Shown: positions 1,878 to 63,568 of the stretch, one piece after another
Position numbering within the stretch: the stretch's first letter is position 1
Layout of the letters: each line of letters opens with the position of its first letter
Source of the DNA: a virus
IMG/VR virus record: IMGVR_UViG_3300047160_020099
Coordinates: 97,937-161,936 of that record
DNA: 64,000 bases
Direction: 5' to 3' (one strand)
The notes under the pieces: generated by a model
What the model saw: only the letters and a program-made list of their open reading frames with translations
Told to the model about the DNA's origin: nothing
The model's database searches: none
Made by a program: the position numbers and the translations under genes

Positions 1878-2624
1878 ATGGGCCAATATGCTTACCCCGA
1901 TTTTCGCCTTCCTGACGTCTTCAGCAAGGGCAATACCAAGCTGGGTAGAGACGTCCTGACGTTTTCGCTTCCGGTGATAACCACGTGTCCCGGCAGCTCT
2001 TCCGTCTGTCGTGATCTCTGCTATGCCGACCGTGCCCAGAGCCGGTTCAGCACGCCCGCGGTCAGACGGTGTTACGAAGAGAACCTTGAACTCTCGAAGC
2101 GAGACGACTTTCATCTAATCGTCACAGACCTGCTATCGAGGCCGCGCCGTGACAACATCATGGTGCGTCTGCACGTCTCTGGCGATTACTATGACGAAGC
2201 CTACGCCCGAAAATGGCTCTATGTTGTCGGGCACAGCCCGCGTATCACGTTCTGGTGCTATACCCGCTCCTGGCGGGTCCCAGCCATCCGACCTGTACTT
2301 GAGGAACTCGGCGGTATGCCGAACATGAGTCTGTGGTACTCATGTGACAAGGAAACCGGCCGGCCGGTCGATTTCCATCCAGCAATCAGGCTGGCTTACA
2401 TGCGGATCGCCGAGAGCGACAAGCCAGCCTACACACCCGACCTGTACTTTCGCGAACACGCCATCCGCAAAACAGTCGAGAAGCACGTGGGCGGCACCCT
2501 GGTGTGTCCGCCCGAGAATGGCGTGAGCCACAGCGTACGCTGCACAAGCTGCCGAATCTGTGTCGTTCGTTCGGATGATACAGCCAAGCGGACGAAGGAT
2601 CGGTTTCCGCTGGAAGTATTGTAA
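1878..2624 (+). CDS. GP88-family (radical-SAM-like fold) phage protein
   Basis: GNTKLG..FSLP..TCPG..CxxxCYA, RLHVSGDYY, FWCYTRSW and C-terminal CP..CxxCxxC, the pattern of phage gene-88-type proteins. Confidence 0.65.
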   Translation: MGQYAYPDFRLPDVFSKGNTKLGRDVLTFSLPVITTCPGSSSVCRDLCYADRAQSRFSTPAVRRCYEENLELSKRDDFHLIVTDLLSRPRRDNIMVRLHVSGDYYDEAYARKWLYVVGHSPRITFWCYTRSWRVPAIRPVLEELGGMPNMSLWYSCDKETGRPVDFHPAIRLAYMRIAESDKPAYTPDLYFREHAIRKTVEKHVGGTLVCPPENGVSHSVRCTSCRICVVRSDDTAKRTKDRFPLEVL

Positions 2625-2628
2625 TACT
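2615..2628. promoter_or_regulatory. palindromic motif AGTATTNNAATACT (first of 15 dispersed copies; see findings)
   Basis: AGTATT-GT-AATACT, upstream of dcd. Confidence 0.6.
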
Positions 2629-2675
2629 CAACAACCTGGTGGCACGGAAGCCGCCAGGTCTGGAAGGAGAAACAA

Positions 2676-3371
2676 ATGAGCGATCATCAGGACCTTGACT
2701 GTTTGTTGCCCAGAGAGCAGGTTGGCAGCGAAGCCTGGCGGCGTCGCTATCAATTTGCAGGCGGAGGGGTCCTTCCGGACTGGCTGATCCGGAAGCTCAT
2801 CAAGATCGAGCCGTTCGCTGAGGCTTATAACGATTGCGTCGTCTCGTACGGCCTTGGTCACTACGGTTACGACATGCGTATTGGCTACGACTTCCGTGTC
2901 TTCACGCCGGTACACGGTGTCGTGGTTGATCCTGCCAATCTTGACGAGAGAGCTTTCGTTCATTTCGACGCCTTGCAACGAAAAGATGAACGACAGCGAC
3001 CGTATTGCTTGGTACCGCCCAATAGCTTTGCGCTTGGAGTCAGCGTCGAGGACTTCACTATTCCTCGGGACGTACTTGGTGTGTGCCTGGGGAAATCGAC
3101 CTACGCGCGTTGCGGTGTGGTAGTGAACGTTACCCCGCTGGAGCCGGAGTGGCACGGCAAGGTGACCGTCGAGATCAGCAATACCTCTCCGCTCCCAGCC
3201 AAAATCTATGCCAGCCAGGGCATTGCACAGGTTCTCTTCATCAAGGCACTTCGTACGTGCGACATCAGCTACGCTGACAAGAAGGGCAAGTACCAGGGCC
3301 AGACTTGTTTGACCTTGCCAAGAGGAGGGGGCTATGACCGCACGCAAGAAAGGCAAACGCAGCATTCGTGA
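2676..3371 (+). CDS. dcd: dCTP deaminase
   Basis: SYGLxxYGYD, GKSTYARCG, [12 protein letters not shown], EISN and [11 protein letters not shown] motifs. Confidence 0.95.
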
Positions 3372-3606
3372 CCGGCTGGCTGCGCTGGTCGAGTACGAAA
3401 TCGGTCTGTTCCCCGAAGACTTCACCGAGAGTGACCCTCTTGGCAGTTGGCTGGCAGACGACGAGATGCTCCAGTCCGACCTGGGCGAAAACATAGCCGA
3501 CGAGTTCGGACTGGAGCTTGCGGTAGATGAGCCAATCTTCCACAAAAAGGATCTCACCTTCGAGGAACTGTTGGCATGGGTAACGCAGAAGTTGAAGCCG
3601 CACTGA
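3334..3606 (+). CDS. acyl-carrier-protein-like protein lacking the phosphopantetheine Ser
   Basis: Aligns by eye with ACP along its length ([35 protein letters not shown]); DSL is replaced by DEM. Confidence 0.55.
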
Positions 3607-6866: not shown

Positions 6867-7708
6867 TGGCCAAAGTCGGTTTCCTCTTCATCCGACGGGT
6901 TCGCTGCCGCGATGGCAAGATTCACAAGATCGGACTGACTACCAAAGGCCAGCTGGCTTTTTTCAACCACACAAAAGCTGAACTCAAGCGACTGTTGAAC
7001 CTTGCGGCCGTCGGTGGCGAACTCTCGCGCTGCATCGGCATTTTGAAGAGTGTCCGCGGCGTTGAGTCCAAGGAGTGCTCACATCACATTGACTTCTCCA
7101 AGGAGAGTCTGACCAGGCAGTCCATGCGCAAGCAGCCCGCAAAGAGGCTTGCCTGGAAGATCCACAACAAGCTCAGGGCCAGACGCGGCGAGGAGCTGAT
7201 TCCGAAGCTGAACCTTGAGCTTGTTGCACCAGAAGAGCGGACGAAGGTGTTTATGCAAGCCGTTGCCACGGTGCTTGCTCGACGTGGCATTGAGACGGAG
7301 CTTACCTCACACAAGCGGGCCTATCCGACGAAACATTGTGCTGACCATACCTACCACATGCTCAGCATCTCTTGTGCTCCCAAGCTGCGTAAGCGGCTCA
7401 TTCACAACAGGAGCTATCACTACGTCACGATGAAGTGGTTTGAGCTAATACCCATGCCTTCGGCCGATCGCCTGATCGTTGCCACATACTACGGCACCTG
7501 GCAACGCGGCGGCGTGAGGCTGCTGAACTGGAAGTATGGCGGACGGATCGTTCGTAGCAAGATGCTCGACGTTGACGTAAGAGCCATAGCCGACAATATC
7601 GAGCGGTGTCTCATCTACAACCTGCAGGTTCTGCCGAAGGTCAGAAAGATACTCGGGCCTCCGGAAGGTAAGAGCAGAAAACACGAAGCGAAGGAGATCA
7701 AGCTATGA
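6866..7708 (+). CDS. hypothetical basic protein (paralog of 4310..5296)
   Basis: AGGAGG RBS, TGATG coupling and shared N-terminal domain. Confidence 0.65.
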   Translation: MAKVGFLFIRRVRCRDGKIHKIGLTTKGQLAFFNHTKAELKRLLNLAAVGGELSRCIGILKSVRGVESKECSHHIDFSKESLTRQSMRKQPAKRLAWKIHNKLRARRGEELIPKLNLELVAPEERTKVFMQAVATVLARRGIETELTSHKRAYPTKHCADHTYHMLSISCAPKLRKRLIHNRSYHYVTMKWFELIPMPSADRLIVATYYGTWQRGGVRLLNWKYGGRIVRSKMLDVDVRAIADNIERCLIYNLQVLPKVRKILGPPEGKSRKHEAKEIKL

Positions 7709-8241
7709 CGACAGTCAGGAGGGACACAAAGCTCTTTCCGCTAACCTCCAGCGATAGCACAGCCAAACTTGAAGAACTGGTTCTAGCCGAGCTGCATCGG
7801 CAGGGTTTCGTTGAAGGCCCCAAGAGCCTGCACAAAGGCTATACGCTCTACAAGACGATCTCTGGCATACCGGTGAATCTGCGGTTCAGAGTCTATACAG
7901 GCGGCTACGTCTACGAGCTTGTCGTGTCCTGGGGTCCGACCATCGGAGAAACCACCTATCGCTACGCCAAGCCACAGGAAGAATTTGATGTCGGCCGAGT
8001 AGTGGCCAACCTGGTGAAGTATTTGAATACTCGCAAAGAGGAGTTGCAGGTCGTCGAATTTCACACTTTGCCGTTTGGAGCTTTCTTCAAGCATGGCGAG
8101 ATAGAGTGCGTATATCTCAAAACAGAGACTGTCACACGCTCTGGCAATCGACTGAATGCAGTAGCGCTCGACATCGGGCTACATGTTGCGTTTGCGCCAC
8201 ACACCAAGGTGTACAGGATCGAATCACCGTTTGAGGATTAA
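7705..8241 (+). CDS. hypothetical protein
   Basis: ATGA overlap and AAGGAG RBS. Confidence 0.6.
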   Translation: MTTVRRDTKLFPLTSSDSTAKLEELVLAELHRQGFVEGPKSLHKGYTLYKTISGIPVNLRFRVYTGGYVYELVVSWGPTIGETTYRYAKPQEEFDVGRVVANLVKYLNTRKEELQVVEFHTLPFGAFFKHGEIECVYLKTETVTRSGNRLNAVALDIGLHVAFAPHTKVYRIESPFED

Positions 8242-9253: not shown

Positions 9254-10078
9254 ATGCCAGCGACACTTGACTACACCTTTCAATTTGGCAGACTGCCGAC
9301 GAATCGTCCTAATCACATTGCAAGGCTGGCTGTTTGCTATCCCTTGATACATCCCAAAAAGGGCGCGCCGGTCAACTGGGGCAAAGCTATGGCCACCATT
9401 CTCGCGATGTGGCGTAGACAAGCCTCGATTCTATGCAGCTTGGGGTGGCTGAGGGTCAAGCACCCGGTGCGCTTGAGGAATTGCCATCCCAGCATGTTCG
9501 TGCTGAAGGATGAACCGCCGAAGGTATATACCTGCTGGTTGGAGAATCTCTGTCCATGGTGCTATGCCAGGCATACGAGCCGGGTAGTAAGACGAGTATT
9601 GCAAAACTACACTCCGGGCTCGGACATCTTCTACTACAGCCATGTGAACCGTATACCTATCGGCATGTTAGACTTCGATCTGCGCCGCGAGCTATACGTA
9701 CGCGCCGGTCAGCCAAGACTGCTCAAACCTGTAAATCGTTTCACCTGTGCTGGTAGCATGTGGACGGTAACCCTGTCACCGGAGCAACACAAAGACAAGC
9801 TGTACTGGCAGCTCCATATGCGAATGCTTTGCATGGCCAAACCAGGGCGAGCTCCGATTTTGATACCACCGAGCTGGAAGTGTCAGATATTCAAGAACTC
9901 ATCTGACGCCGATTTCAATGCAGCTCTGGCCAGGACATTTCGGTATCCTGTGGGTCTGTTGACCAGCCCAGCCCACTTGGTTATGAAGGCCATGGAAACG
10001 AGAAAGGGCCGTCGTTACAACGAAGTACTGGGCGCATTTCGTGCCGGAAAGAAGAAAGAAGATGAACCAGTTAGCTGA
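9254..10078 (+). CDS. degenerate rolling-circle Rep (Rep_1/HUH-like) protein
   Basis: C-x5-CPWC zinc motif, WQLHMRML (HUH-like), FRYP and KGRRYNEVLGAF in Rep_1 order. Confidence 0.5.
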   Translation: MPATLDYTFQFGRLPTNRPNHIARLAVCYPLIHPKKGAPVNWGKAMATILAMWRRQASILCSLGWLRVKHPVRLRNCHPSMFVLKDEPPKVYTCWLENLCPWCYARHTSRVVRRVLQNYTPGSDIFYYSHVNRIPIGMLDFDLRRELYVRAGQPRLLKPVNRFTCAGSMWTVTLSPEQHKDKLYWQLHMRMLCMAKPGRAPILIPPSWKCQIFKNSSDADFNAALARTFRYPVGLLTSPAHLVMKAMETRKGRRYNEVLGAFRAGKKKEDEPVS

Positions 10079-11871: not shown

Positions 11872-12186
11872 ATGTCACTGGACTTCTGCATTGGCGAAGA
11901 GGAATTGCGTAAGGCGCTCAAGCTGATTGAGGCTGCCAAGCGGGGTGGCTACAGCCACACATTGGCGGTTTTCGAGATCAGTCAAGCAGGCAAGAGGCTG
12001 GATGATTGTCTTGCCGTGTCTGATGGTTCTGTCGTGTTGAAGGCCCATCCGACCGACAGCCATCAGAACTGGGGTCGTGCTTGGGACCCAGAAGATCACA
12101 TAGTGGTTGACGGCGTCTCTCGATACAGAGATGAGTTAGCACCGGAATTCGACAAAAGGCAGTTACTGGGAGGCGATGACGGATGA
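11872..12186 (+). CDS. hypothetical protein
   Basis: AAGGAG RBS; abuts the previous stop. Confidence 0.55.
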   Translation: MSLDFCIGEEELRKALKLIEAAKRGGYSHTLAVFEISQAGKRLDDCLAVSDGSVVLKAHPTDSHQNWGRAWDPEDHIVVDGVSRYRDELAPEFDKRQLLGGDDG

Positions 12187-12449
12187 GTGACGTGGAGATT
12201 TTGAAGACAGTTGGCGACATCGGTTTGCCACCAGAAGATACTCGTGAAGTTGGAGAATTTGGCAGGCGTCTCTTCTTGTGGAGACAGCACAGAGGCTTGA
12301 CCCAGAAAGAGCTAGCTGCAAAGGCTGGCACGCATCCTTATGTGATAACTGCGGTAGAGAGTGGCGTTGCAAAAGGTGCGCAACTCAATACATTGCGTAA
12401 GCTCGCGCAAGCTCTTGGCATAACGATCAGCCAGCTGGTCGGTGCATAA
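12183..12449 (+). CDS. XRE/Cro-family helix-turn-helix regulator
   Basis: RxxRGLTQKELAxKAG...IxxxExG......TLRKLAxALG. Confidence 0.9.
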   Translation: MSDVEILKTVGDIGLPPEDTREVGEFGRRLFLWRQHRGLTQKELAAKAGTHPYVITAVESGVAKGAQLNTLRKLAQALGITISQLVGA

Positions 12450-13110: not shown

Positions 13111-13369
13111 GCCTACCTTCGTTGAAGTCCCTGGGATGGACAGGCCTGTTGCTGTGTACCAGGGCGGCGTCCTTGTACAGAAAGTACCAGGTGCTAAGAA
13201 CGGTGAGTGCGGCTGGGTACAGCTTACTCAGACAGTGTGCGGCACGTGCCTCGAAGCCCTCCAGGCCATCGCCGACTTCAAGAAGCAAGAAGAGGAGCAA
13301 GCCGACTTGCCTGACGAAGTCGTCGAGGACGTGATCGGTCGGCTCAAGGGCGCGCCGACAGTGCCGTAA
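13043..13369 (+). CDS. hypothetical zinc-binding protein
   Basis: CAVC...CGTC pairs. Confidence 0.5.
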   Translation: MTPDEFDNLMQTNPCAVCGTTHEPTFVEVPGMDRPVAVYQGGVLVQKVPGAKNGECGWVQLTQTVCGTCLEALQAIADFKKQEEEQADLPDEVVEDVIGRLKGAPTVP

Positions 13370-13392
13370 TATTGCAATACTCGGGAGGGAAG

Positions 13393-21230: not shown

Positions 21231-21679
21231 TACATACAGGAAGGCTGCCACGAGAGTCGTTGGTCATTCTTGCCAGTGTTATTTCTGGCGACAATCACAT
21301 AGAGTGTGATTTCGATGCCGTTGACTGGTTCGAGCAAGCGACCGACGAGGAGATTCTTGACGTTGATAGGACAGCGTGGAGCGATTCCTATCCAACGGAC
21401 GCTGTGGCCAGATACTGTGAAGACCAACCAGCAGTGGCCAAAGTATTCGAATACTTGGAAAAACACGCAGAAAGAGGCGAAGAGGCGACCTATGCGTGCT
21501 GGATCTCTCAACTCGATGCCATGACTTGGCTATGGGAAAACAGACCGTATCTCGCCAGGAGATTGAAACTGAAAAATGAAGAGCGTCGTGCTGTTTCTGC
21601 AAAACGCCTGGTCACGTCGGTGGGCCGGACGGAGGTGGCCGAGAGAGGACTGGTTGCAGGCATTGCACAGAAGCCATAG
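21227..21679 (+). CDS. hypothetical protein
   Basis: ATGA-coupled start MIHTG within ORF 21074..21679. Confidence 0.5.
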   Translation: MIHTGRLPRESLVILASVISGDNHIECDFDAVDWFEQATDEEILDVDRTAWSDSYPTDAVARYCEDQPAVAKVFEYLEKHAERGEEATYACWISQLDAMTWLWENRPYLARRLKLKNEERRAVSAKRLVTSVGRTEVAERGLVAGIAQKP

Positions 21680-22700: not shown

Positions 22701-24368
22701 ATGCCAGAGCACTTCTCATATGCGGAAACCCAGGCCCGCATGAGTCTGGAGCACCGCATCCAGTTACTTGCGCACCTGCTACGAGTCCCGGAGTTGTTTG
22801 TACAGGCTCGTTCTGTGCTGCGCGCCGAGCACTTCGGCGAGGTAGACGAACCACACTTGCAGATCATATGGAAGACGGCCGTCAAGGCAGCCAATGACCA
22901 TGGCTCGCAACGTTTGTTCATCAACTCGCAACAGACGTGGAATCTCCTATCCGCCGAGTGTCGAAGTTATGTGGCGGCCAATACTGCCGAAATGCCGGAG
23001 GAGTTTCATGCACAGCTCTTCGACCCCGCGGTAGGCGTACTCGCGTGGATCTTCGGCCTTATGAAGCCGGAAGAGATCAACATCACCTGGGGCCGCTCCC
23101 TCCTGGTCTCATTCCTGAACGAACGCTGGGTGCAAGACCCGGTACGTCAGGCAATGCTTGATGCCGGCGATCAGACGATCACCAATCTGCCCATCCTGTT
23201 TCGCGAGGCTGAGGAACGGCGGGCTACAGTCAATTCGCTGGCGGAAGACGAGTCTGAAGCTATCACACCAGAGTGGGTGCCGAGAGGCCTGAACAAGATC
23301 CCGACGGCTGTAGACTTCGTGGACGACATCCTGCACGGCGGTGATTGCTCGGGCGAAACATACGGCATCCTCGGTGCCTTCAAGGCCGGCAAGACTACCC
23401 TGGCAATCCAACTGGCTGTTGGTGCGGCTGCTTACGAGCTGGACCAGATAAGCCTGGCGGCTCAGGATCATCGGACGCATCAGGTGCGTTACCCACATCT
23501 CTTCCACTACGAAGCCGGCGCCGAGGAGATGAAAAGCCGAATCCTGGTGAATGCTGCCAGGATTCATCGCGAGACTGTCGAGAATTGGAATACTGCCCCA
23601 CTGTCGCGACAGGGACAGCTCAAGCCTTACGAACTGGAGACATTCCGAGATGAGATCAGAGCCATCGGTATAGCGAACGTGCCCGGCGAGTTCGAACGCT
23701 TTCATCAGCGGCAGGGCCTGATGAACATGATCCGCCTGCACGACATGTCTGGTCCAAAGAGTAACCCCAAACGTGGCAGCCGCGGCATTGCCGAAATTGC
23801 CGAACGTCTGGAGATCGAGACTCGTAAGGGACGCCCACCTCGCAGAGTGATCATCGACTATGCACAGTTGTGCGTGAAGCGGTTGATCCTTGAGAACAGC
23901 ATGCGGCAGGACATGTACTACCCGACATTGTCCAACTTCGGCTATGACTGCCTGCGCTCCATCGCCATCCCGTTTGACTGCCCGGTCTGGATCATGGGTC
24001 AGCTGAGCGGACAGGCGAACAAGCACACCTGGGCGACCAAGCAACACCATGCAGATGCGGCTGGCACAGCCAGCTTCGGCGAGAACCTGTGGTTCTGCTT
24101 CACGCTTAGTGTCAAGAACGAGCAGCACAATGCCATGTGGTTCAAGTGTGGGATCTCTCGTCGCACAGACGTGGGCGATCCGATCATTGTCCGACTGGAA
24201 GGCGCACTGGGCACCATCCGCCGGGCACCGGAGATTATCGAGCAAGGAGGGCGATTGATACTTGCGGCTGAGGCGACCAGTGATCTGCACCAACCGTCAC
24301 AGGGGCATGTTGCCCAGGCCGGCATGGTTATTGATCCACACGGCGGTATGCCAGGAGCTATCGAATGA
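22701..24368 (+). CDS. DnaB-like replicative helicase
   Basis: Walker A GAFKAGKT, VIIDYAQL Walker B, PVWIMGQLS; directly before the primase. Confidence 0.85.
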   Translation: MPEHFSYAETQARMSLEHRIQLLAHLLRVPELFVQARSVLRAEHFGEVDEPHLQIIWKTAVKAANDHGSQRLFINSQQTWNLLSAECRSYVAANTAEMPEEFHAQLFDPAVGVLAWIFGLMKPEEINITWGRSLLVSFLNERWVQDPVRQAMLDAGDQTITNLPILFREAEERRATVNSLAEDESEAITPEWVPRGLNKIPTAVDFVDDILHGGDCSGETYGILGAFKAGKTTLAIQLAVGAAAYELDQISLAAQDHRTHQVRYPHLFHYEAGAEEMKSRILVNAARIHRETVENWNTAPLSRQGQLKPYELETFRDEIRAIGIANVPGEFERFHQRQGLMNMIRLHDMSGPKSNPKRGSRGIAEIAERLEIETRKGRPPRRVIIDYAQLCVKRLILENSMRQDMYYPTLSNFGYDCLRSIAIPFDCPVWIMGQLSGQANKHTWATKQHHADAAGTASFGENLWFCFTLSVKNEQHNAMWFKCGISRRTDVGDPIIVRLEGALGTIRRAPEIIEQGGRLILAAEATSDLHQPSQGHVAQAGMVIDPHGGMPGAIE

Positions 24369-25432
24369 TGAGACCTGATTTGTACAGGAGGCTAGAACAA
24401 CGTTCACGACGCTACGGCTTCGGCAAGGTGCTTTTCGCCCACGAGAACGAAGCCATGAGTTGTCATTACGGCGCTGACAGCATAACAGGACGGCAACGAC
24501 TCATTGTCGATATGCCGGGTGAATACCTGCGAGTCAACTGCCCGTTCTGCACGGATACCCGGCACCGCCTCTGGATCAACTATCAGTGGGGTCTTTATGA
24601 TCCAAAGATAGGCACCCTCAACCTTTGGCTAGCTATCTGTTTCAATGAAACCGCGTGCATGGACAAGCCAGGGAAGCCTGAAGAGTTGTACCGGATCGTC
24701 TATAACGATGTCACCAACCGACGACAAGTAAGAGCGGGCGATACAGTCAACAAAGGCATCAAGGTAGACAAGGCAGCCATATGCCACTTCAGGCCGGCTG
24801 GCAACGTGCTGTATCCTCTTCACGTTTTGCCACCGCATCATCGTGCGTTGGCATATCTGCGTAGTCGAGGTTATGACCCGAACCAGTTGTCTCTGGAACA
24901 CGGCGTCTCTTATTGTGCGGATGCTAGCGCTGAATTTCCCAAGGCATTCGACAGGATCATCGTTCCAATTGTGATGCGTGGAGAACTGGTTGGTTGGCAA
25001 GGCCGGTACATTGGTGAGCCACCCAAGGGCGTGATGAAGTATTACAACATGCCCGGGATGCAGAAGATCAAATACTTGTACAACTTCGATGTTGCCTCAA
25101 AATACCCATTTGTGGTGTTGACCGAGGGAGTAACAAAGGTCTGGCGAATCGGTCCGGAGGCTGTGGCACAGTTCGGCAGTACGCTGGCTGGCTTTCAGGC
25201 ACATCTGATAGATGCGACGTGGCCGACCGTCGTTGTCTACCTGGACGGCAACGCCCACGAGCAAGCTGAACAGGCCTATTGCTCGTTGCGGGCCATGCCC
25301 AACCGTGTCAAGATCCTGCTACCACCAGGGCAAGAGCCTGGTGATTTCAGCCAGGAATATAATCGTGCGTTGATACTCAATGAAGCCAGAAAGCAAGGCG
25401 TAACGTTGCGAATGGACGGAGCAGAGATATGA
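24365..25432 (+). CDS. DNA primase
   Basis: CPFC zinc finger, YLxxRG, RIIVPI..GWQGR, TOPRIM TEG and YLDG. Confidence 0.88.
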   Translation: MMRPDLYRRLEQRSRRYGFGKVLFAHENEAMSCHYGADSITGRQRLIVDMPGEYLRVNCPFCTDTRHRLWINYQWGLYDPKIGTLNLWLAICFNETACMDKPGKPEELYRIVYNDVTNRRQVRAGDTVNKGIKVDKAAICHFRPAGNVLYPLHVLPPHHRALAYLRSRGYDPNQLSLEHGVSYCADASAEFPKAFDRIIVPIVMRGELVGWQGRYIGEPPKGVMKYYNMPGMQKIKYLYNFDVASKYPFVVLTEGVTKVWRIGPEAVAQFGSTLAGFQAHLIDATWPTVVVYLDGNAHEQAEQAYCSLRAMPNRVKILLPPGQEPGDFSQEYNRALILNEARKQGVTLRMDGAEI

Positions 25433-30976: not shown

Positions 30977-31074
30977 CCTATCGACCGGTCAGTTGCTGTA
31001 TTACAATACTCAGTGGCACTGCCCTTATGGGGCCCGCCACGAGGTTTTAGGTCCTGGGTTCTGGGTCCATTCTT

Positions 31075-39640: not shown

Positions 39641-39838
39641 ATGCGACACCGCCGTTTCGCTACAAGCGACTTTGACGAAGCCGTGGCGCTCATGCACCTG
39701 TTGCACGCCAATGGTGTCCCCTACGACATTGATGTGCCAACAGGGCAGCCGGACTATGTGATCATGGTGCCAGAATCGCACCGACAGCGGATCGAGCAGC
39801 TTCTGTCACAGCACGACGACGAGCAGGAGACAAGCTGA
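39641..39838 (+). CDS. hypothetical protein
   Basis: AGGAGGT RBS. Confidence 0.6.
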   Translation: MRHRRFATSDFDEAVALMHLLHANGVPYDIDVPTGQPDYVIMVPESHRQRIEQLLSQHDDEQETS

Positions 39839-40780: not shown

Positions 40781-43150
40781 ATGTTGCCGCGGATAACGTC
40801 CGAGGTTTTCCACACGTCGTCGTGGCTGAAGACGCCATACTTGAGAGCACCAGGCGTGGTGATGCTCTCGATGCCACAGGTCGAATTGACGCGACTGGAT
40901 GACTTCCTTGGAGGTTTCGACAAGTCGCTGGAGTTCGACAAATACCTGGATGACAACCCGGATCAGTTGCCAGCTGGTGAGAGACTGGTGAAGTTCGCTG
41001 GGCAGCTATGCTATCTGAGCCATGGGGCGAAGCGCTCGTGGAATAAGGACGCACAGAAGTACCTGGACCACATTCTGAGTAGTGGTCATGGCTGTTACGA
41101 CGCTGAAACCGAAGTACTGACGTCAGTTGGTTGGAAAGATTGGCCGTCGGTGACGGAGCGCGACTTTCTAGCCACGCTGAAGCTAGATAGGTCTCTAACC
41201 TATGCGCAGCCTTTGAAAGTCGCGTCTTTCCAGTACGCCGGCCGTATGTGTCGGGTCGAAACAGCTGGTGTGGATCTTCTCGTCACACCCAACCACCAGA
41301 TGTACGTCTGTCCGACAACTACAAGAGAAGGACGCAAGCGAGAGAACTTCCGGCTAGTTACGGCTGAGGAGCTTGGGACAGTCTCCCACGCGTATAGCAA
41401 AGTCGCCGAGACATGGTCTCCATGCAATCCCATCAACTACTCGCACAATGTCATGCGATTTCTCGGCTTCACTATCGGTGATGGCTACTATGCCGGTCGA
41501 GGTTACCAGGTGAAATTTCGACTTCGACGGCCTAGGAAGATTGTCTGGTTACGTGCGCTGATCCAAACACTCTCGAACGAAACGGAAGGTCAGTGGGAAC
41601 TTCAGGAAGGTAAAGACGATCGTTTTACAATCAACTTTCCGTCCTGCCACGCTGATCTTTTTCAGCGTATCTACCTGACTACCGGTGACAAGTGCATTCC
41701 CCAGCACTTGCTGATGACTGGTACCAGGCCAGCGCTGACGGCGTTGCTGGAAGGGCTAATGCAGGCCGATGGTTCCGTAGGTCGAACCGGCAATTCGTAT
41801 GACACGACGAGTCCATTTCTTGTCGGACAGCTTCAGCAGCTATGCTTGCATACTGGTATAGCTGCCAACGTCTGTTACACCTACGGTCCTGAACAGCGCA
41901 CAAGTTCCTTCGGTACTAAGCCTCTTACGCGGCTGTGGCTAGTCTCCAGACAGTTGCATCCCGAGGTGAATAAGTATAGCGGCCAACTAGGTCGGTCTTA
42001 CTGGATAGACGACTGGGCTGGTGAGGTATTTTGTGCGCAGATGCCGGATGATACACAACACGTCTTATATGTTCGCCGTAATGGCCAGCCAGTGTGGTGT
42101 GGTAATAGCGTGCTTGAACACGCCAACTACTCATTCCTCTTCTACGGCATCTCGCGAAGCATGACACACGAGTTGGTTCGGCATCGCGCAGGCTTTGCCT
42201 ACTGCCTGGCGGGTAACACGGTTGTATTCAGTGGTTCAAAATTCCACGGCAAGCTCAACGGTGTTAAGAAACACTGGACCATGAAGCAACTTTACGACTG
42301 GTCCCTTGATAAGAAACGACGCGGTAGGCTCAAGCTACTGACAGTGCGCTGCTGGGATGGCGAATCGTTTGTGCCGACCAGGATTAAAGGCGTAAGCTGT
42401 TCTGGCGAGAAAGAAGTTTTCGACGTACAACTGGCCGACGATAAGGTCATTCGCTGTTCTGCTGATCATCGCTTTCTGGGGAGAGCCGGCTGGAAAGCAC
42501 TTCGAGATTTTCAGCCAGGTGAGGAAATCGCCACAAACGGCTTACCCTTGTACCAGTCCGAAGTGCGCGTGCTGACAGTGAAATGGGTACCAATCGTATC
42601 CATATCCACTGCCGGTATTGAAATGACATATGATCTTGAAGTCGATCATCCGGCTCATAACTTCGTGGCGAATGGTATCGTAACGCACAACTCGCAAGTG
42701 TCGCAACGCTACGTGGACGGCACCAAGCTCCGCTTCGTTGAGCGGCCTGAGTATTGCAATAGTCCAACGCTACACCACATGTTCGAAGAGTGGATTGACT
42801 CCTGCAAGCAGTGCTACGATATCCGCGCGGCTGAGCTTACCGCCACGATGAAGGACACTTTTACGCCAGAGATGACGGCTGTTGACCGTCGCAAGGCCGT
42901 CAACCAGGCCGCTCGTTCTGTTCTGCCAAACGAGACAGAAGCACCCATCGTCGTAACGGCCAATGTCCGTGCGTGGCGACACTTCCTTGAGATGCGGGCT
43001 AGCAAGTTTGCGGAGGTTGAGATCCGCCGGCTGGCCTATGGCGTCTACCGGTGCTTGCTGGAAGTGGCGCCGATGTTCTTCTCCGATTACACAACCGTCA
43101 CACTGCCTGACGGCTACGCCGCGTTGGATACGCCGTACCACAAGGTTTGA
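40781..43150 (+). CDS. thyX: flavin-dependent thymidylate synthase interrupted by two inteins
   Basis: GHG|SVLEHA, SRSMTHELVRHR..Y|SQVSQRY, ARSVLPN, NVRAWRHFLEMR and EIR motifs; ~288 aa after splicing. Confidence 0.93.
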   Translation: MLPRITSEVFHTSSWLKTPYLRAPGVVMLSMPQVELTRLDDFLGGFDKSLEFDKYLDDNPDQLPAGERLVKFAGQLCYLSHGAKRSWNKDAQKYLDHILSSGHGCYDAETEVLTSVGWKDWPSVTERDFLATLKLDRSLTYAQPLKVASFQYAGRMCRVETAGVDLLVTPNHQMYVCPTTTREGRKRENFRLVTAEELGTVSHAYSKVAETWSPCNPINYSHNVMRFLGFTIGDGYYAGRGYQVKFRLRRPRKIVWLRALIQTLSNETEGQWELQEGKDDRFTINFPSCHADLFQRIYLTTGDKCIPQHLLMTGTRPALTALLEGLMQADGSVGRTGNSYDTTSPFLVGQLQQLCLHTGIAANVCYTYGPEQRTSSFGTKPLTRLWLVSRQLHPEVNKYSGQLGRSYWIDDWAGEVFCAQMPDDTQHVLYVRRNGQPVWCGNSVLEHANYSFLFYGISRSMTHELVRHRAGFAYCLAGNTVVFSGSKFHGKLNGVKKHWTMKQLYDWSLDKKRRGRLKLLTVRCWDGESFVPTRIKGVSCSGEKEVFDVQLADDKVIRCSADHRFLGRAGWKALRDFQPGEEIATNGLPLYQSEVRVLTVKWVPIVSISTAGIEMTYDLEVDHPAHNFVANGIVTHNSQVSQRYVDGTKLRFVERPEYCNSPTLHHMFEEWIDSCKQCYDIRAAELTATMKDTFTPEMTAVDRRKAVNQAARSVLPNETEAPIVVTANVRAWRHFLEMRASKFAEVEIRRLAYGVYRCLLEVAPMFFSDYTTVTLPDGYAALDTPYHKV
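41093..42106 (+). mobile_element. intein 1 in thyX (338 aa) with LAGLIDADG endonuclease
   Basis: CYDAETEVLT, VTPNH, FLGFTIGDG, LLEGLMQADG; ends VWCGN|S. Confidence 0.9.
42203..42691 (+). mobile_element. mini-intein 2 in thyX (163 aa, no endonuclease)
   Basis: CLAGNT, CSADHRFL, TYDLEV..HNFVANGIVTHN|S. Confidence 0.92.
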
Positions 43151-45906: not shown

Positions 45907-46782
45907 ATGCCTGTTACAGTATCGTCACCAATAAAGACTTCTGGTGGGAAGCATTACGTCGCCGATTGGATCATCTCGCTCCTGCCACCGCGAGACCGCT
46001 ACGATACTTTCATCGACGGGATGTGCAGGAGCTGTGCGGTGTTGCTAGCTCACGATCCAGCCAACAAGTCCGAGTTGGCCAACGACCGTGACCGCATCAT
46101 CAGCAACTTCTGGCGGGTCTTGCAGTGCCCGTATCTCTTCCCGCTCTTCAAGCGGCGTGTCGATGCCACCCCCTTTGGCTACGTCGAGTTCGACGAGGCC
46201 AGGGAGCGTGTCATGTACTGGGACCGCTCCTTCAGGGAGCACGCTACACTGCACCCGATCGACGTGGATCTGGCTGTGGCCTTCTTCATCCTGGCCAGGA
46301 TGAGTTTCGCCGGTAACAACAAGACCTTCACATCGATAACCACCAGCCGGCTACGCCGTGGCATGAACGCCGAAGTCTCTGCCTGGTTGACGAGTATTGC
46401 AATACTTCCAGCTGTTCATGCTCGTATGCAGCGTGTGCTGGTCCTCGACGAGGACATCAACGAACTGGTCCGCAAGTACGACAAACGTCGTGTGGTGTTG
46501 TATGCAGACCCGCCCTATCTGCTGAGCAAGGAAGAGGCCAGAGTTACGCCCGACCTGTACGGACACTTCGATTGGAACGAAGAGCAACACACAGCGTTCC
46601 TGCGGAACTGCCTGGCGACTGACAAGCTCTATCTCCTCGTCTCCGGCTACGAGACCGAGCTGTACAACGACACACTTCTGCCAGCCGGCTGGAAGCTCCA
46701 TAAGTCCACGCCTCAACCTTTGCACTCGGCCGGCGGCCTGCGTAAACGTCGCCAGGTGGAGTGCGTCTATACGAGTTACTGA
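45907..46782 (+). CDS. Dam-like N6-adenine DNA methyltransferase
   Basis: GGK, ELAND, NFWRVL, YADPPY and SGY motifs; GGAGG RBS before ATG 45907. Confidence 0.85.
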   Translation: MPVTVSSPIKTSGGKHYVADWIISLLPPRDRYDTFIDGMCRSCAVLLAHDPANKSELANDRDRIISNFWRVLQCPYLFPLFKRRVDATPFGYVEFDEARERVMYWDRSFREHATLHPIDVDLAVAFFILARMSFAGNNKTFTSITTSRLRRGMNAEVSAWLTSIAILPAVHARMQRVLVLDEDINELVRKYDKRRVVLYADPPYLLSKEEARVTPDLYGHFDWNEEQHTAFLRNCLATDKLYLLVSGYETELYNDTLLPAGWKLHKSTPQPLHSAGGLRKRRQVECVYTSY

Positions 46783-51769: not shown

Positions 51770-53302
51770 ATGACTCTTGAGAGAGTTGCCGAGCTCTTCG
51801 AGCAGGAAGAGCTCAAGAGGCAGCAGGCCCAGGAGAATTTGGCTCCGGAGGCGGCTATCGAGGAGACCGCTCCGGGCGAGCTGAAGCCGAGTATTGAAAT
51901 ACTGGCTGCCGCCACGAAGGCAGGCAACCCGTGGCCGTCGGCCACGCAGGAGCTGTTTACGGCGTTGAGACCCGGGAAGATTCTCGGGTTGTTCCGCCAG
52001 TTTCGGCTCCGCACTCAACTTTACATACGCGATCAAAACCTTGGAATCGCCGGCAAGCTTCCCGACCTGGAGCAGCTACTCCGGCAACAGCAGCCTCACA
52101 ATGGTCGGCTGCTTCATCCCGAGCTCCCTCCTGCCCGGCTTGTGCAGTCGCTCAGGTGCCAGTTCGGCCTGTTCCTTTCGGAGTTCGACGACCTGGCCAT
52201 TTGCCGCCGGCTGGAGCATATCTACCAGGTCCAGGCACAGCCGTCTTCGGTCAGGACTCGTATGGGACGCTATTACGCGGTCACGTTCATGCCAGCGGAG
52301 GGGCAATTCCGCGTCGAGAACGTGTCGAAGGCCGGCCGGGAAATCCCGATGGCGATCTTGCCGCTGGAGGACTTGCGGACTCTGGTCCTGTTAACACGCT
52401 CCCACCAGCTGAAGTGCGGTCGCGTCATCGAGATGTTCGACGTCCGGTCGTTCAAGACCGAGCTCGACGCGGCTTCCGGCATGGTGCGTGTCGGCGGTGA
52501 AAACGACGAGGGCTACAGCCGTTGTTGCCTGGCGAAGTACTTCAACTACACGCCCATGCAGGACAACGATGGCCGCCTTCTGGAGCCAACGGATGGTTCG
52601 ATCATCGCCGCAGCGCTGGCGCTGCACCGCGGCATCGAAAGGGTGATCCTCCGCGGCGCCACGTCGGTCCCGTACCCCGACTTCCCCAGCATCTATCTCG
52701 GCTTCGATGCTGAGGACAGCATCGACTTCGAGGTGACGCCGTCGCTGGAGGAGAACGCGTACTACGCGGTGCTGGACTGGTTCAGATCCGGCAAGCGGAT
52801 CCCAAACTGGCTGGGCCTGAACAGGTACCCGACGTTGCAGAGGCAACTCTGCAACAAGCTGCGTTACGCCGGCCGGTCGTGGCCTGACGTGGCCCGACAA
52901 CTGGGCGACGAAGACGCACGGCTTCTGCTGATGCAGGTATGGCTGGGCAGCGAACTCAGCTACAACGGACTGCACCTGATGCCGCTGGAATTCTTCAAGG
53001 GCTACAGCGAGCAGAAGCCCGTCGAGAAGGCCAAAGCCGTCTTCGCACAGCTGGCCATCCGGCAGCTGGGCCGGGATGAGCTGGAGGTCAAACAGGAAGT
53101 TCTGCAGGACGCGTCGGGAACCGAGCTTCGCAAGGTCCAGGTAGTGCCGCGGCTGGACAAGACCATGGCCAAGGTCCAGGTCATGCGGCGGTCCTGGGGT
53201 GCTGCCCCGAAGGACGTGGAGGGGCCATACGACTTCGACTTCACGACCGTGCCGACTGGCCTGGAGCAGGAGTTCCGGGAAGTCACGCGCGGTGACCTGT
53301 GA
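51770..53302 (+). CDS. hypothetical protein
   Basis: GGAGG RBS; 510 aa; strong codon bias; directly upstream of the RNA array. Confidence 0.75.
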   Translation: MTLERVAELFEQEELKRQQAQENLAPEAAIEETAPGELKPSIEILAAATKAGNPWPSATQELFTALRPGKILGLFRQFRLRTQLYIRDQNLGIAGKLPDLEQLLRQQQPHNGRLLHPELPPARLVQSLRCQFGLFLSEFDDLAICRRLEHIYQVQAQPSSVRTRMGRYYAVTFMPAEGQFRVENVSKAGREIPMAILPLEDLRTLVLLTRSHQLKCGRVIEMFDVRSFKTELDAASGMVRVGGENDEGYSRCCLAKYFNYTPMQDNDGRLLEPTDGSIIAAALALHRGIERVILRGATSVPYPDFPSIYLGFDAEDSIDFEVTPSLEENAYYAVLDWFRSGKRIPNWLGLNRYPTLQRQLCNKLRYAGRSWPDVARQLGDEDARLLLMQVWLGSELSYNGLHLMPLEFFKGYSEQKPVEKAKAVFAQLAIRQLGRDELEVKQEVLQDASGTELRKVQVVPRLDKTMAKVQVMRRSWGAAPKDVEGPYDFDFTTVPTGLEQEFREVTRGDL

Positions 53303-56572: not shown

Positions 56573-56628
56573 GGAAGTATTCCAATACTCGTCGGCAAAG
56601 TGCCGACTACCCGAGAAGGAGGATTCCG

Positions 56629-58548
56629 ATGAACACTGGTCTGTTCCGTCCGGAGGGTATCAAGGACCCGCTGGCTGACACGGTCAACCGCGCCGGCGGC
56701 CTGGCCTTCCAGTACGAGAGATTCCACGAGCTGTGCCAGCTCGCCTTCGTGGGTACGTTCCCCGACGGGACGTACTACGACAGCCGCGCCGGCGTCACCC
56801 AGCTGCAGCGCCTGATTCAGCTGGCCCGCGAGGTCAATGACCCTGTGCGGCTCGCGAAGCTGTGCGTGGCCAGCCGCCACGGTGGGTTCATGAAGGACAT
56901 GCCGATGGCACTGCTCCTGCTCCTGTCCGTGCCGTCGGACGAGGAGCGTGCCCTGGAGGCTAGCGTCAAGGACAAGACGGAGGACGCTGCCGAGCGCAAG
57001 CTGGTCGCACACGACCTGGCCCGGATCTCCCGGCAGCGGGCTGACCTGTTCGGCCGCGTCTTCGACATCGTCGTGGACGATGCGAAGGTCCTCAAGACCT
57101 TCTTCCAGATGCTTCGCAGCGGCGTCTTCGGCCGCAAGTGCCTGTCCTACTGCCTTCAGAAGAAGGTGCAGAACTGGCTCAACACGCGCGGCGTCGGGGC
57201 ACTGCTGAGCGGCAGCGTCGGCGGCAAGAACGCCAAGAGCGACGACGCGACCGGTGAGTCCACCAAGCCCGCGTCGCTGTGCGACGTGCTGCGCCTGGCG
57301 CGGCCCACTCCGGTCGATGACAGCCGTCGGGCCCTGTTCGGCTGGCTGACCGACTCCAGCGTCGAGAAGTGGGCGCCGGCTACCAAGGAGCACCTGCCGT
57401 CGGCTGTGAAGCTGCTGGAGGCGTACCGCCGGGCCACCGACCCGGCGACCCAGATCAACCTGCTCCAGCAGATGCAGGGCACCTACGTGCGCTGGGACCT
57501 GCTGTCCAGCGATGCGCGTGGGCCGCTCGTGTGGCGTGAGATCGCCCGGCACATGATGGGTCCGCAGGCTCTGCGGATGAACCTCAACACGCTCATGCGT
57601 CACGAGGCCTTCCAGGACGAGGGGATCGTGGACTACGTCGTCGAGCGGATCTGTGACCCGGTCGCAATCCGCACGTCGAAGCAGTTCCCGTATACCTACT
57701 TCCTGGCTTACCAGTTCGCTGAGGCGGGCTTGCCCGACAAGCTCCGTCAGGCGCTCGCGCGTGCCGCGGAGCTGTCCTGCGAGAACATCCCGGCATTGCC
57801 CGGCCCGATCCTCATCGCGGTGGATCACTCCAGCTCGATGCAGGTGCCGGCCACCGGCAATCGCGGACCCGGTTCGACCAGCAAGCTGACCTGTGCGGCT
57901 GCGGCGGCTCTGTTCGGGGCCACTCTCCTCAAGAGGAACCCGGACAGCTGTCTGCTGCCGTTCTCGGACGGCCTGTATCCGAACTTCAGGGTCGATCCGG
58001 CCGACTCCATCCTGTCGATCAGCCAGCGGCTGAACGACCTGGCGTGGGGTGGCACGGATGTCCACCTGGCCATCACGGCGGCCCTGGGCGAGGACGTGCA
58101 AATGCGCACGGATTCCTACGACCTGAACTACGGCAGCCGTCGCGCGCCTGCTACCGGGCGTACCCTGGTGCCTCAGCGGCCGTGGGCTGGTGCGGTCATC
58201 CTCTCTGACAACCAGAGCTGGATCACCCCGTCTGCCACGCCTCGCGGCTACCACCTGTCGCCAAATCCAGGCGGCACGACGATGCTGGCTCGCCAGTGGC
58301 GTCGGCTGACCGAGCGACAGAAGGGTTCGGCCTTCCCGAATCCGAAGCTGGTCTGCTACGACCTGCAGTGCTACGGCACAACGCAGGCGCCCGAGATGGC
58401 AGACGTGCTGAACCTCGGTGGGTTCAGCGACTTCTCCTGGTCGATTGTCCACGACTTCTTCCAGGGCGTGCTGGACCTCCAGCACCGCTTCACCGCCCTG
58501 GTGGACGCTGTCGAATTGGGCAACCCGGCCACGTATGACGTCCAGTGA
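56629..58548 (+). CDS. Ro60/Rsr-like TROVE-domain RNA-binding protein with C-terminal vWA domain
   Basis: NRAGGLAF, GT..GTYY, MKDMP, ALRMNLNT, FPY; vWA MIDAS VDHSSSM, GGTD and ILSDNQ; GGFSD. Confidence 0.92.
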   Translation: MNTGLFRPEGIKDPLADTVNRAGGLAFQYERFHELCQLAFVGTFPDGTYYDSRAGVTQLQRLIQLAREVNDPVRLAKLCVASRHGGFMKDMPMALLLLLSVPSDEERALEASVKDKTEDAAERKLVAHDLARISRQRADLFGRVFDIVVDDAKVLKTFFQMLRSGVFGRKCLSYCLQKKVQNWLNTRGVGALLSGSVGGKNAKSDDATGESTKPASLCDVLRLARPTPVDDSRRALFGWLTDSSVEKWAPATKEHLPSAVKLLEAYRRATDPATQINLLQQMQGTYVRWDLLSSDARGPLVWREIARHMMGPQALRMNLNTLMRHEAFQDEGIVDYVVERICDPVAIRTSKQFPYTYFLAYQFAEAGLPDKLRQALARAAELSCENIPALPGPILIAVDHSSSMQVPATGNRGPGSTSKLTCAAAAALFGATLLKRNPDSCLLPFSDGLYPNFRVDPADSILSISQRLNDLAWGGTDVHLAITAALGEDVQMRTDSYDLNYGSRRAPATGRTLVPQRPWAGAVILSDNQSWITPSATPRGYHLSPNPGGTTMLARQWRRLTERQKGSAFPNPKLVCYDLQCYGTTQAPEMADVLNLGGFSDFSWSIVHDFFQGVLDLQHRFTALVDAVELGNPATYDVQ

Positions 58549-60601: not shown

Positions 60602-60608
60602 GGTTCAA

Positions 60609-61697: not shown

Positions 61698-61710
61698 TCG
61701 TGAATCACCC

Positions 61711-63333
61711 ATGCTTCTTGAACCCATCCACGGAGTAGTCGTCTCTGACGGCTACTCCGATTACCTCGACGTAACTCTGTCCCATAACAGGCCTATTCTC
61801 AATCACTGTGTCGTCGTCACTTCACCCTCCGACACAGCCACCCAGCAGGTCGCGTGCAAGCACGACTGCGAGCTGGTCATTACCGCGGAAGGACACGAAG
61901 CAGCTGCTGAGTCTTTCAACGTTGACCCCATCAACGGACCAGCACAGCCGAAGTTCTTCAACAAAGGCTTGATGATTGAGAAGGGCCTGATCCAGCTTCC
62001 ACAGATTGGCTGGAGATGTATTGCCGGACAGCACGACGTCAAAGCTGCGCATATCAAGGCAGCCTCTCGACGCTTTTATCGTGGGTCACTTATTGAGCTG
62101 ACTACTCGCAGTGGCCGCTCTGTGACCGTAACACCTGATCACAAGCTCCTTACGCAACGGGGCTGGATTAGTAGCAAAGCGATCAACAAGAGCGATCACC
62201 TGTTCCACATCGACGTCACTGATACCGTCAGGACACCACAAGTAGATCAGCATCCATCCGTGTTTGGTAAGATAATCGACTCGCTCTTGATTTGCCGACC
62301 CTTCACCAAGATGAGGGCCGCGCGGATGAGTGTGAACTTCGAGTCCAAGCTTACCGATGGCGATGTCGATGTTGTATGGGCCGACAGCTTGTTGAGACGT
62401 AGGCTTGAATTGAGTCAATGCAGTAAGCAGGCTCTCTTCGAATTGTCCGACAAGTCGCTTGCTGCGCTCGTGGGCAACGGCAATCTTCATTTTGTGTTGA
62501 AGAGATTTCCTTTTGCCCAGTTGAGCCTCAATGCAGGCTTTTGTCCGTCGAGCTATGTACTCAGGGCTTTCTCTGGAGGCACGCACGACGCCAGCGCTAC
62601 TCTTGTCCCTGATCGCTATACCACCCAGCCTCAGTTGTCTGGCAATGGTTCGGTCGTCAACACCGAAGATAGCAGCCAGCGCTTTCTTGCTCTCTCCAGC
62701 GAGATAACGCCGGATGATATCGTTTCGATTCAAGTCATCCCGTGGTGCAACCATGTGTATGATCTCGCAACAGCTAGTGGATGGTATACGGCCAACGGCT
62801 TGATTATACATAACTGCCAGTTCGACGCCGATATCGTCTTCCCAGGCAACATGCGTCAGCGTCTTGGGCCGGCTCTCCACGACAAGTCCTGCCTGTACAG
62901 TACCGACCGCATGAACGTGGTCGGCTGGGCTGCCTGGCAGCGGCTCATTCAGTCTGGCTGGACTGCTCGCGGCTTTGAGTACCAGCACTACCTTACCTAC
63001 TCCATCGACAACGCTGCCATTGGTTCCCGCCTCATTTACGGCGACCACGGCTGGGTGCCTATTGGCTTTCTGCAGATTTGGCATAGCAGCACCGAGTTCA
63101 ACGGTACGAGCCGAATAAGGAGCTACCCGACTGGCTCCAACAACGCTGCTCACGACGACGTGCAGTTCGGCTTGCGTTGGGACCGTGCCAAGAGGGTTTT
63201 GATCCCTGAAATCCTGGTGGCCCACCTGCTGACAGACGACGCGAAGTACGGGGTAAACTGGAACGGGCGGAAGACCAAGAAGTTTGGGCCGGAGGCCGTG
63301 GAGGCAAAGCCCAAGAAAGAGGCTGGCAAGTAG
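61711..63333 (+). CDS. GT-A-fold glycosyltransferase-like protein interrupted by an intein
   Basis: YSDYL..TL..N, VVVT..D..T, FNKG, W.|CQFDADI (DxD), GFLQIW and DxxF motifs. Confidence 0.75.
   Translation: MLLEPIHGVVVSDGYSDYLDVTLSHNRPILNHCVVVTSPSDTATQQVACKHDCELVITAEGHEAAAESFNVDPINGPAQPKFFNKGLMIEKGLIQLPQIGWRCIAGQHDVKAAHIKAASRRFYRGSLIELTTRSGRSVTVTPDHKLLTQRGWISSKAINKSDHLFHIDVTDTVRTPQVDQHPSVFGKIIDSLLICRPFTKMRAARMSVNFESKLTDGDVDVVWADSLLRRRLELSQCSKQALFELSDKSLAALVGNGNLHFVLKRFPFAQLSLNAGFCPSSYVLRAFSGGTHDASATLVPDRYTTQPQLSGNGSVVNTEDSSQRFLALSSEITPDDIVSIQVIPWCNHVYDLATASGWYTANGLIIHNCQFDADIVFPGNMRQRLGPALHDKSCLYSTDRMNVVGWAAWQRLIQSGWTARGFEYQHYLTYSIDNAAIGSRLIYGDHGWVPIGFLQIWHSSTEFNGTSRIRSYPTGSNNAAHDDVQFGLRWDRAKRVLIPEILVAHLLTDDAKYGVNWNGRKTKKFGPEAVEAKPKKEAGK
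62017..62814 (+). mobile_element. intein (266 aa) in the glycosyltransferase
   Basis: CIAG start; TVTPDHKLLTQRGW block B; VYDLAT..Y.ANGLIIHN|C end. Confidence 0.88.
62086..62754 (-). CDS. HTH plus Vsr/DUF559-like endonuclease encoded antisense inside the intein
   Basis: IIRRYLAGES..LA..FGVD..TI..L helix-turn-helix; E..L..AL, QQAVGPYNIDIA...LGLEV and RVDYL..HGW.LIYLW. Confidence 0.75.
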   Translation of the reverse strand: MVAPRDDLNRNDIIRRYLAGESKKALAAIFGVDDRTIARQLRLGGIAIRDKSSAGVVRASRESPEYIARRTKACIEAQLGKRKSLQHKMKIAVAHERSKRLVGQFEESLLTALTQFKPTSQQAVGPYNIDIAIGKLGLEVHTHPRGPHLGEGSANQERVDYLTKHGWMLIYLWCPDGISDVDVEQVIALVDRFATNPAPLRKELVIRCYGHRAATASSQLNK

Positions 63334-63346
63334 GAGGGCTGTCGCG

Positions 63347-63568
63347 ATGAGCGTGGTGCCTATGTGGCCGTATAAGCAACTGCCAGGGGCAGGGAGGCCA
63401 AAGTTCTATTTTACGCCGTGTCTGTATTGTGACTGGCCGTGCAAGGGGCACTATGAGTTGCCGGGGCCAGTGGTGACGGGGTGGCAGTGCCCGGCGTGCA
63501 AGAGGTGTCATGCGCCAGGCGTGGTGACTTGCCCGTATTGTCCTCAAGTTGAGTATGTGAATACTTGA
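63347..63568 (+). CDS. small Cys-rich zinc protein
   Basis: GWQCPAC..C.AP....CPYC; AGGAGG RBS. Confidence 0.55.
   Translation: MSVVPMWPYKQLPGAGRPKFYFTPCLYCDWPCKGHYELPGPVVTGWQCPACKRCHAPGVVTCPYCPQVEYVNT

Follow-up and report, generated by a model that had tools for sequence, protein, structure and literature searches.

The last 64 kb (bases 97,937–161,936, hereafter the window) of the 161,936-bp IMG/VR virus record IMGVR_UViG_3300047160_020099, from an uncultured jumbo phage, carry dispersed copies of a 14-base palindrome, AGTATTNNAATACT, consisting of two six-base half-sites around two variable bases (6-N2-6). A census of the whole record and its relatives confirmed that these copies form a lattice that is real and strongly non-random. 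On balance, they appear to be putative docking sites, together making up a genome-wide lattice, for a homodimeric protein that binds DNA sequence-specifically and is most likely a phage product.

Eight exact and seven one-mismatch copies are present in the window, and all 15 coordinates agree with those listed by an earlier reading made from the letters of the window alone (the sequence-only reading). That reading had put the number of exact copies expected by chance below 0.01, in accord with dinucleotide-preserving shuffles of the window (0.00 exact and 0.04 one-mismatch copies). It had also noted that no gap exceeds about 8 kb (the largest within the window is 8,074 bases), that several copies lie upstream of gene starts, and that one is inside the polymerase intein; independent gene calls bear out the latter two, with the copy at 29226 falling at about residue 1266 of the family-A polymerase. 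Its GC estimate of about 58–60% was close but slightly high, the measured values being 54–63% along the window with a mean of about 57% (57.8% for the whole record). The count for the whole record is 19 exact and 18 one-mismatch copies, with two mismatches found in just two more. A family arising by chance would grow steeply with each mismatch allowed, so the near absence of two-mismatch copies indicates a closed set of about 37 sites. Shuffling synonymous codons inside each gene left a mean of 1.3 in-gene sites (maximum 4), compared with 21 observed; this check had been proposed by the sequence-only reading, as had one of spacing regularity. When IMG/VR was scanned with AGTATTCGAATACT, only single chance matches per contig were returned.

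Genes were called with a simple codon-usage caller of our own, which gave 181 genes, 170 of them on the + strand, and left 9% of the record as non-coding DNA. Against this background, 16 of the 37 sites are not wholly within a gene (P = 3e-7). Most of these junction sites fit into the short interval that separates a stop codon from the ribosome-binding site that follows; the stop is often a TGA sharing the site's first A, and eight of the 15 with a called downstream start end 11–19 nt before it. The start of the site ranges from 134 nt before to 14 nt after the ATG. Three sites lie within codons 3–9 of a gene, two of these genes being paralogues with a common N-terminus, while the remaining 18 are found at any depth in unrelated genes, including the polymerase intein, ThyX, a DnaB-like helicase, a D12-class methyltransferase and both RNA polymerase genes; some sites are up to 4 kb from the next gene start. 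In-gene sites are read in three frames (SIxIL, xYxNT and xVFxYx) and are written in disfavoured codons, with a mean relative synonymous codon usage (RSCU) of 0.88 against 1.24 for the genome, and with 20% of codons at RSCU below 0.5 against 7%. The three reading frames, the codon cost and the loss of sites under codon shuffling together indicate that the selected object is a nucleotide word and not a peptide.

The sites are also more evenly spaced than expected. Gaps between neighbours average 4,483 bases with a coefficient of variation (CV) of 0.48, compared with 0.98 for random placement, an evenness never reached in 20,000 random trials. The widest gap measures 9,013 bases where 17.8 kb would be expected (P = 0.0005), the narrowest 775 bases where 118 would be expected (P = 0.0007), and the evenness persists under a null model in which 16 sites are drawn from real gene starts. 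Were only the junction sites present, intervals of 14.8, 21.8 and 25.6 kb would be empty, and it is exactly there that the in-gene sites fall. The rule of placement seems to be at least one site per about 9 kb, preferably at a gene junction and otherwise inside a gene.

Both halves of the palindrome are similarly conserved, the 18 one-mismatch variants being divided into 11 with the change in the left half and seven in the right. The central two nucleotides vary, as had been noted in the window: ten different dinucleotides occur among the 37 sites, mostly G/C (27/37), and on the coding strand CC (7) and GG (6) are about equally frequent, revealing no orientation bias. The dyad is not significantly longer than 14 bp, with a weak preference for a purine at −1 and a pyrimidine at +1 (28/37); an extended 16-bp dyad was considered and rejected, since complementarity of the flanking pair is seen at only 12 of the 37. 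Folded as RNA, the hairpin of AGTATTNNAATACT is marginal (−1.4 to −2.7 kcal/mol); three of the 18 one-mismatch variants retain pairing through G-U and none carries a compensatory pair. Equal conservation of the half-sites, a centre free of orientation and a weak RNA fold argue for a two-fold-symmetric protein bound to duplex DNA, and not for a structured RNA. The ATT|S centre fits the cleavage consensus of RuvC, yet this was rejected as a general explanation because other lineages lack such a centre.

The phage has its own bacterial-type RNA polymerase, encoded by two genes, one for beta joined to the N-terminal portion of beta' and another for the C-terminal portion of beta'. Cultured phages yielded no close relative. 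Metagenomes contain over 2,000 homologues of the C-terminal beta' protein, many of them on contigs of 150–230 kb, and 80 related loci were recovered from IMG/VR with an alignment query, a search with the C-terminal beta' protein alone having returned nothing. Among the more distant relatives, G004 (190 kb, 92% complete, GC 43%) carries 23 exact and three one-mismatch copies of a different palindrome, GGAGACGTCTCC, usually flanked by AGT and ACT (AGT-GGAGACGTCTCC-ACT). Nineteen of these 26 sites are within genes, and their spacing is even (CV 0.47, P = 0.0001). A second relative, G005, has 21 palindrome copies. Fourteen G004 sites can be aligned to G005, with flanks about 74% identical, and 13 of them are kept, 12 exactly, against a neutral expectation of 0.13. 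In other genomes the palindrome is AAATCYRGATTT (7–11 copies per genome in three genomes) or AAGATATCTT (6–11 copies per genome in three genomes), with no copies in controls for either, and TGGAGACGTCTCCA and WWAGATATCTWW were met in G003–G005 and G009–G011. All four relatives tested for spacing are even (CV 0.39–0.59, P = 0.0001–0.01). These comparisons indicate that the lattice is a family trait under purifying selection, in which the palindrome differs by lineage while the density stays at one site per 4–9 kb.

The only local cluster in the otherwise even lattice of G004 is a gene-poor stretch where a longer repeat occurs three times (106713, 107243 and 109368), each consisting of tggattaagt, the palindrome and about 20 nt ending in a run of A. 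It might be an origin of replication or the control region of the reader's own gene.

The outer part of the palindrome, AGTA...TACT, is found only in the nearest relatives (at least 62% beta' identity), at least five of which share it. AGTA-N6-TACT occurs eight times in G001 (a 62-kb record) and nine times in G002 (a 94-kb record), compared with one or two for controls, and controls with permuted half-sites gave no exact match except one. The inner six bases in these two genomes are A/T-rich (AGTA-W6-TACT), not strictly palindromic and without orientation. Spacing is again even (CV 0.39 in each; P = 0.01 and 0.001), and the sites head gene blocks about 8–9 kb long. Fifteen of the 17 exact sites are intergenic, and 13 end 9–17 nt before an ATG, immediately next to the ribosome-binding site. 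Intergenic gaps are only 10–30 nt in length, so any intergenic element is necessarily near a start. Several positions are orthologous. A site precedes the first gene of the polymerase operon in all three phages (record 91; G001 46,759; G002 40,281), the site at record 19,980 corresponds to G002 59,867, and one following a 1,546-residue gene at record 52,864 has its counterpart near G002 77,707. G001, G002 and a third relative also share a copy within the beta-beta' gene, about 200 nt from its end. Short contigs (5–7 kb, 71–76% beta' identity) were uninformative, their sole AGTA...TACT match coming from the conserved peptide PVLHYS.

Two sites of G002 (957 and 1889) lie in a duplication, 932 bases apart, that includes the site, about 30 nt upstream (TTGCAA-N16/17-TAAAAA) and the first codons downstream. 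The orthologous G001 site retains the TTGCAA, and this is the sole case in which a sigma70-type promoter seems to overlap the palindrome.

In the proposed mechanism, a homodimer of a sequence-specific protein would dock on double-stranded DNA at each copy, and with the lattice in place every part of the chromosome would be within about 9 kb of one. From these nucleation points the protein could act genome-wide, by spreading or sliding, by bridging, or by marking the phage chromosome, and long-range damping of transcription could be included. The logic would be like that of KorB on its OB operators, ParB on parS or Noc on its binding sites. It is the even coverage, and not an association with particular genes, that suggests action at the scale of the chromosome; we infer action at a distance from the even spacing only. 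Reader and site would co-evolve, which would account for the switches of specificity between lineages. A fuller version of this proposal is possible but tentative: a core phage protein, not a recognisable ParB, would read a lineage-specific palindrome every 4–9 kb, including within essential genes and inteins, as a chromosome-wide marking system in which reader and site switch together, serving a genome-scale task (organising, protecting, silencing or self-discrimination) in a mostly uncultured family of RNA-polymerase-encoding jumbo phages. To our knowledge, no chromosome-wide marking system of this kind has been described for viruses.

The sequence-only reading had likewise proposed a site for a dimeric protein, acting either in genome organisation or as a roadblock. 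The symmetry, the free centre, the independence of reading frame, the codon cost and the even spacing all speak for this, while the stoperator analogy fails on symmetry and neither a canonical parS/ParB pairing nor the named binders are supported. Several points weigh against docking sites for a chromosome-scale protein. In G001 and G002, 15 of the 17 sites abut the ribosome-binding site, which would suit a local role in gene expression as well, and this placement in the nearest relatives may keep such a role alive. The record is 78% complete by CheckV, and gene positions depend on the caller used. The ParB N-terminal domain PF02195 was absent (E ≤ 0.01) from the record and from G002, G004, G005, G009 and G011, three of these five relatives being at least 92% complete and the controls positive. 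Searches of about 45 proteins against Pfam, PHROGs, PDB and Atlas returned no dimeric DNA binder except an XRE protein that is not conserved.

It is unlikely, although several observations would fit, that a global transcription regulator uses the sites as operators or roadblocks, arranged like stoperators along the co-oriented gene arrays or as local operators heading gene blocks. The enrichment at junctions, the position of most G001 and G002 sites just before an ATG and the conserved site ahead of the RNA polymerase operon in three phages would suit such a regulator, and one orthologous pair overlaps a TTGCAA-N16/17-TAAAAA-like promoter. Because the genes are almost all co-oriented, roadblocks no more than 9 kb apart could silence the whole genome. 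However, half of the sites here, and most of those in G004, lie deep in genes at any relative position, gene starts picked at random would be less evenly spaced, and the distance from site to ATG is widely variable. A −35 element is not generally present upstream (the mean score is 2.0 at junction sites and 2.4 at random positions), terminator-like hairpins upstream are not in excess (P = 0.28), and no integrase of the tyrosine type (PF00589) was found in the 78%-complete record, serine integrases not having been searched for. A terminator-promoter arrangement at the sites was considered and is not general.

Stoperators of Cluster A phages resemble the lattice in their distribution, with tens of sites genome-wide, many in very short intergenic gaps and overlapping stop codons (PMC9283540, PMC6550527). 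They are asymmetric sites of 13–14 bp bound by the monomeric immunity repressor of temperate phages (PMC9283540), whereas the site here is a palindrome with equally conserved halves. The stoperator analogy of the sequence-only reading thus holds for distribution and fails for symmetry. Stoperators are also oriented with the direction of transcription, and the balanced CC and GG centres show no such orientation here.

An enzyme target, either for a nuclease or nickase seeding recombination-dependent replication or for a DNA methyltransferase, is very unlikely. Six-bp cores resembling restriction sites do recur across lineages (TTCGAA, GACGTC, GATATC and TCCGGA), and the phage encodes D12 methyltransferase, DUF1016/PDDEXK-like, HNH, RuvC-like, Rad50-like and RecA-like proteins. 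However, the variable centre means that the 6-bp core is not constant, a recognition sequence of 14–18 bp is much longer than methyltransferase sites, and the D12 methyltransferase has no blastp match (E ≤ 1e-4) in G004 or G005. We know of no precedent for a phage cutting its own genome at 37 places.

There is at most a slight chance that the phage's own RNA polymerase uses the sites as promoters or terminators, even though that enzyme is of bacterial type and, among the closest relatives, gene blocks are headed by them. Perfect two-fold symmetry leaves the sites without orientation in a genome whose genes nearly all run in one direction, some sites are kilobases from the next start, and the polymerase genes are themselves preceded by a site. 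The phage also encodes a sigma70-like protein, which predicts asymmetric promoters; a test for these found no −35 element 16–18 bp upstream, and the −10 candidate, TATTSS, lacks the final T. Scarcely credible is a role as RNA hairpins for processing, stability or antitermination in long co-oriented transcripts: every site is transcribed, since nearly all genes are on one strand, and the G004 version would be stable as RNA (−10.9 kcal/mol), but the fold here is marginal, few variants retain pairing, the G001 and G002 stem is only 4 bp, and it is sequence and not structure that is conserved.

Docking sites for a chromosome-scale dimeric protein have partial parallels among known systems. The nearest published case is a 17-bp dyad repeat, TGTTCGGNNNCCGAACA, of Cluster O mycobacteriophages, which is present in 34 invariant copies between and within open reading frames (ORFs) and has no known function (Cresawn et al. 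2015, PMC4351075). The likeness is one of architecture and not of sequence homology: both are invariant inverted repeats with a variable centre, present in more than 30 copies, intergenic as well as inside ORFs. The half-sites there are arranged 7-N3-7 and differ in sequence, and the Cluster O phages are 70-kb Mycobacterium siphophages, unlike this jumbo phage. Even spacing and lineage-specific switching of the palindrome, both found here, are not reported for Cluster O in the accessible portion of that source (PMC4351075).

KorB, a clamp of the ParB family, is loaded onto DNA at a palindrome, from which it slides to reach promoters far away (McLean et al. 2025, PMC11790492). Its OB operators on the IncP plasmid RK2 are short palindromes read by a dimer and dispersed both near and more than 1 kb from promoters, and the sites here are likewise dispersed; with 14 bp and 37 copies they resemble the dispersed 13–16 bp palindromes of the ParB-parS and KorB-OB systems. 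RK2 carries 12 OB sites. No gene with a ParB N-terminal (CTPase) domain was detected here, nor was a KorA-like partner identified, and the parS-like sites suggested by the sequence-only reading are unsupported in their canonical form, given that this domain is lacking in the record and five relatives. A third comparison is with phage 434, in which the operators, read by the repressor and Cro as XRE-type HTH dimers, are 14 bp long, the 4-bp half-sites on the outside being conserved and the AT-rich middle variable (ACAA-N6-TTGT), the same geometry as AGTA-N6-TACT in this clade. Phage 434 has six operators in two clusters, whereas the lattice is genome-wide, and the XRE gene of this phage does not co-occur with the motif in relatives, as a reader of the 434 type would.

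The reader is most likely phage-encoded, but it may be a host protein. Two binders had been named by the sequence-only reading, the XRE protein (12183–12449) and the product of the ORF at 30193, and a search of 5.8 billion proteins detected no homologue of either. The XRE protein is a true member of the HTH_3 family with weak similarity to 434 repressor (E = 0.002–0.003) and to controller proteins, and it has no match in G001, G002, G004, G005 or 83 related loci at E ≤ 1. Both proteins are missing from two relatives that are 88–92% complete and have lattices of their own, leaving these candidates unsupported. Searches of the record with ParB_N, sigma70_r2 and integrase profiles were empty, and PDB sequence searches of six proteins gave no convincing reader; the reader may have a ParB-like fold that is invisible to sequence searches. 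A candidate DNA binder is a conserved, basic (isoelectric point 9.5) DUF932-like protein of 378 residues (36468–37604; Atlas feature score 0.97, structure TM-score 0.70–0.84). It was one of two conserved basic proteins examined in the ESM Atlas, the other having no usable model. The first gene of the polymerase operon (L005:120-668) was modelled with AlphaFold (pLDDT 66) as a four-stranded sheet with three long helices, for which the PDB yielded nothing significant beyond weak PUR-alpha-like matches.

The XRE gene and an ORF of 104 residues share a 4-nt overlap (together 11872–12449), and neither protein was matched in the relatives examined; the layout resembles a toxin-antitoxin or controller cassette. 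A ParB-like VVDGxxR match found by regular expression in the 104-residue ORF was unsupported by Pfam and PDB, and was set aside.

Dispersed dyad repeats are known in a few phages and have been left unexplained. Even spacing, codon cost, purifying selection and switching of the palindrome favour a physical role exercised chromosome-wide over gene-by-gene regulation, in a family with thousands of metagenomic members. Because many lineages each have their own palindrome, the reader should be discoverable by covariation. Finding it would show by what means phages with very large genomes organise, mark or silence them, and reader-site pairs could provide orthogonal DNA-protein addresses.

The 15 sites of the window are listed in Table 1. 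The gene that starts at 13393, directly after one of them, lies upstream of a Rad50-like gene.

Table 1. Copies of the palindrome in the window (window coordinates; distances to gene starts are counted from the end of the site).
Position	Copy	Centre	Context
2615–2628	exact	GT	overlaps stop codon of GP88-like gene; 47 nt before dcd start
8018–8031	exact	TG	within ORF 7705–8241, read KYLNT
9595–9608	one mismatch		within ORF 9494–10078
13368–13381	one mismatch		junction, against ribosome-binding site; 11 nt before ATG at 13393
21442–21455	exact	CG	stretch without called gene; 120 nt before start at 21576
23581–23594	one mismatch		within DnaB-like helicase gene 22701–24368
29226–29239	exact	CC	within intein of family-A polymerase gene 25429–30180
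30997–31010	one mismatch		intergenic, after 8-bp hairpin; 79 nt before start at 31090
34414–34427	exact	CG	within ORF 34031–34579, read LVFEYL
40081–40094	one mismatch		within ORF 39838–40737 (conserved, basic, Cys-rich C-terminus)
42750–42763	one mismatch		within intein-bearing ThyX gene 40781–43150
46393–46406	exact	GC	within D12-class adenine methyltransferase gene 45907–46782
51890–51903	exact	GA	within ORF 51770–53302, read SIEIL
56576–56589	exact	CC	intergenic; 39 nt before Ro60/TROVE gene 56629–58548
63552–63565	one mismatch		junction, directly before ribosome-binding site and ATG of last ORF of window

The record carries at least four inteins. One is in the family-A DNA polymerase, at about residues 970–1363 (Intein_splicing 970–1363; LAGLIDADG 1153–1234), a protein that also has an N-terminal domain of the uracil-DNA-glycosylase superfamily (residues 119–273). 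RNA polymerase beta and ThyX each carry a LAGLIDADG intein, and a 540-residue protein (61711–63333) has an intein splicing domain. The D12-class enzyme, which contains a lattice site, is an N6-adenine DNA methyltransferase. Other encoded proteins are DnaG-like, DnaB-like, RecA-like and Rad50-like proteins, a RuvC-like resolvase, ThyX, dCTP deaminase, Ro60/TROVE, a DUF1016/PDDEXK-like protein and HNH endonucleases.

The sigma70-like protein (243 residues; record 63,295–64,026, outside the window) has a Sigma70_r3 domain (E = 1e-6) and a C-terminal helix-turn-helix, and is conserved in G002 (50% identity) and in G004 and G005 (about 37%). It is likely to be a specificity factor of the phage's own polymerase. 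Its gene was overlooked by a nucleotide-level search for sigma70 region 2.

The two small paralogues that carry a site near their starts (record 32745–33909) have a common N-terminus, xVF(Q/E)YFDLHA, whose codons spell the palindrome. Both keep a perfect site, though the proteins are 57% identical over 44 residues.

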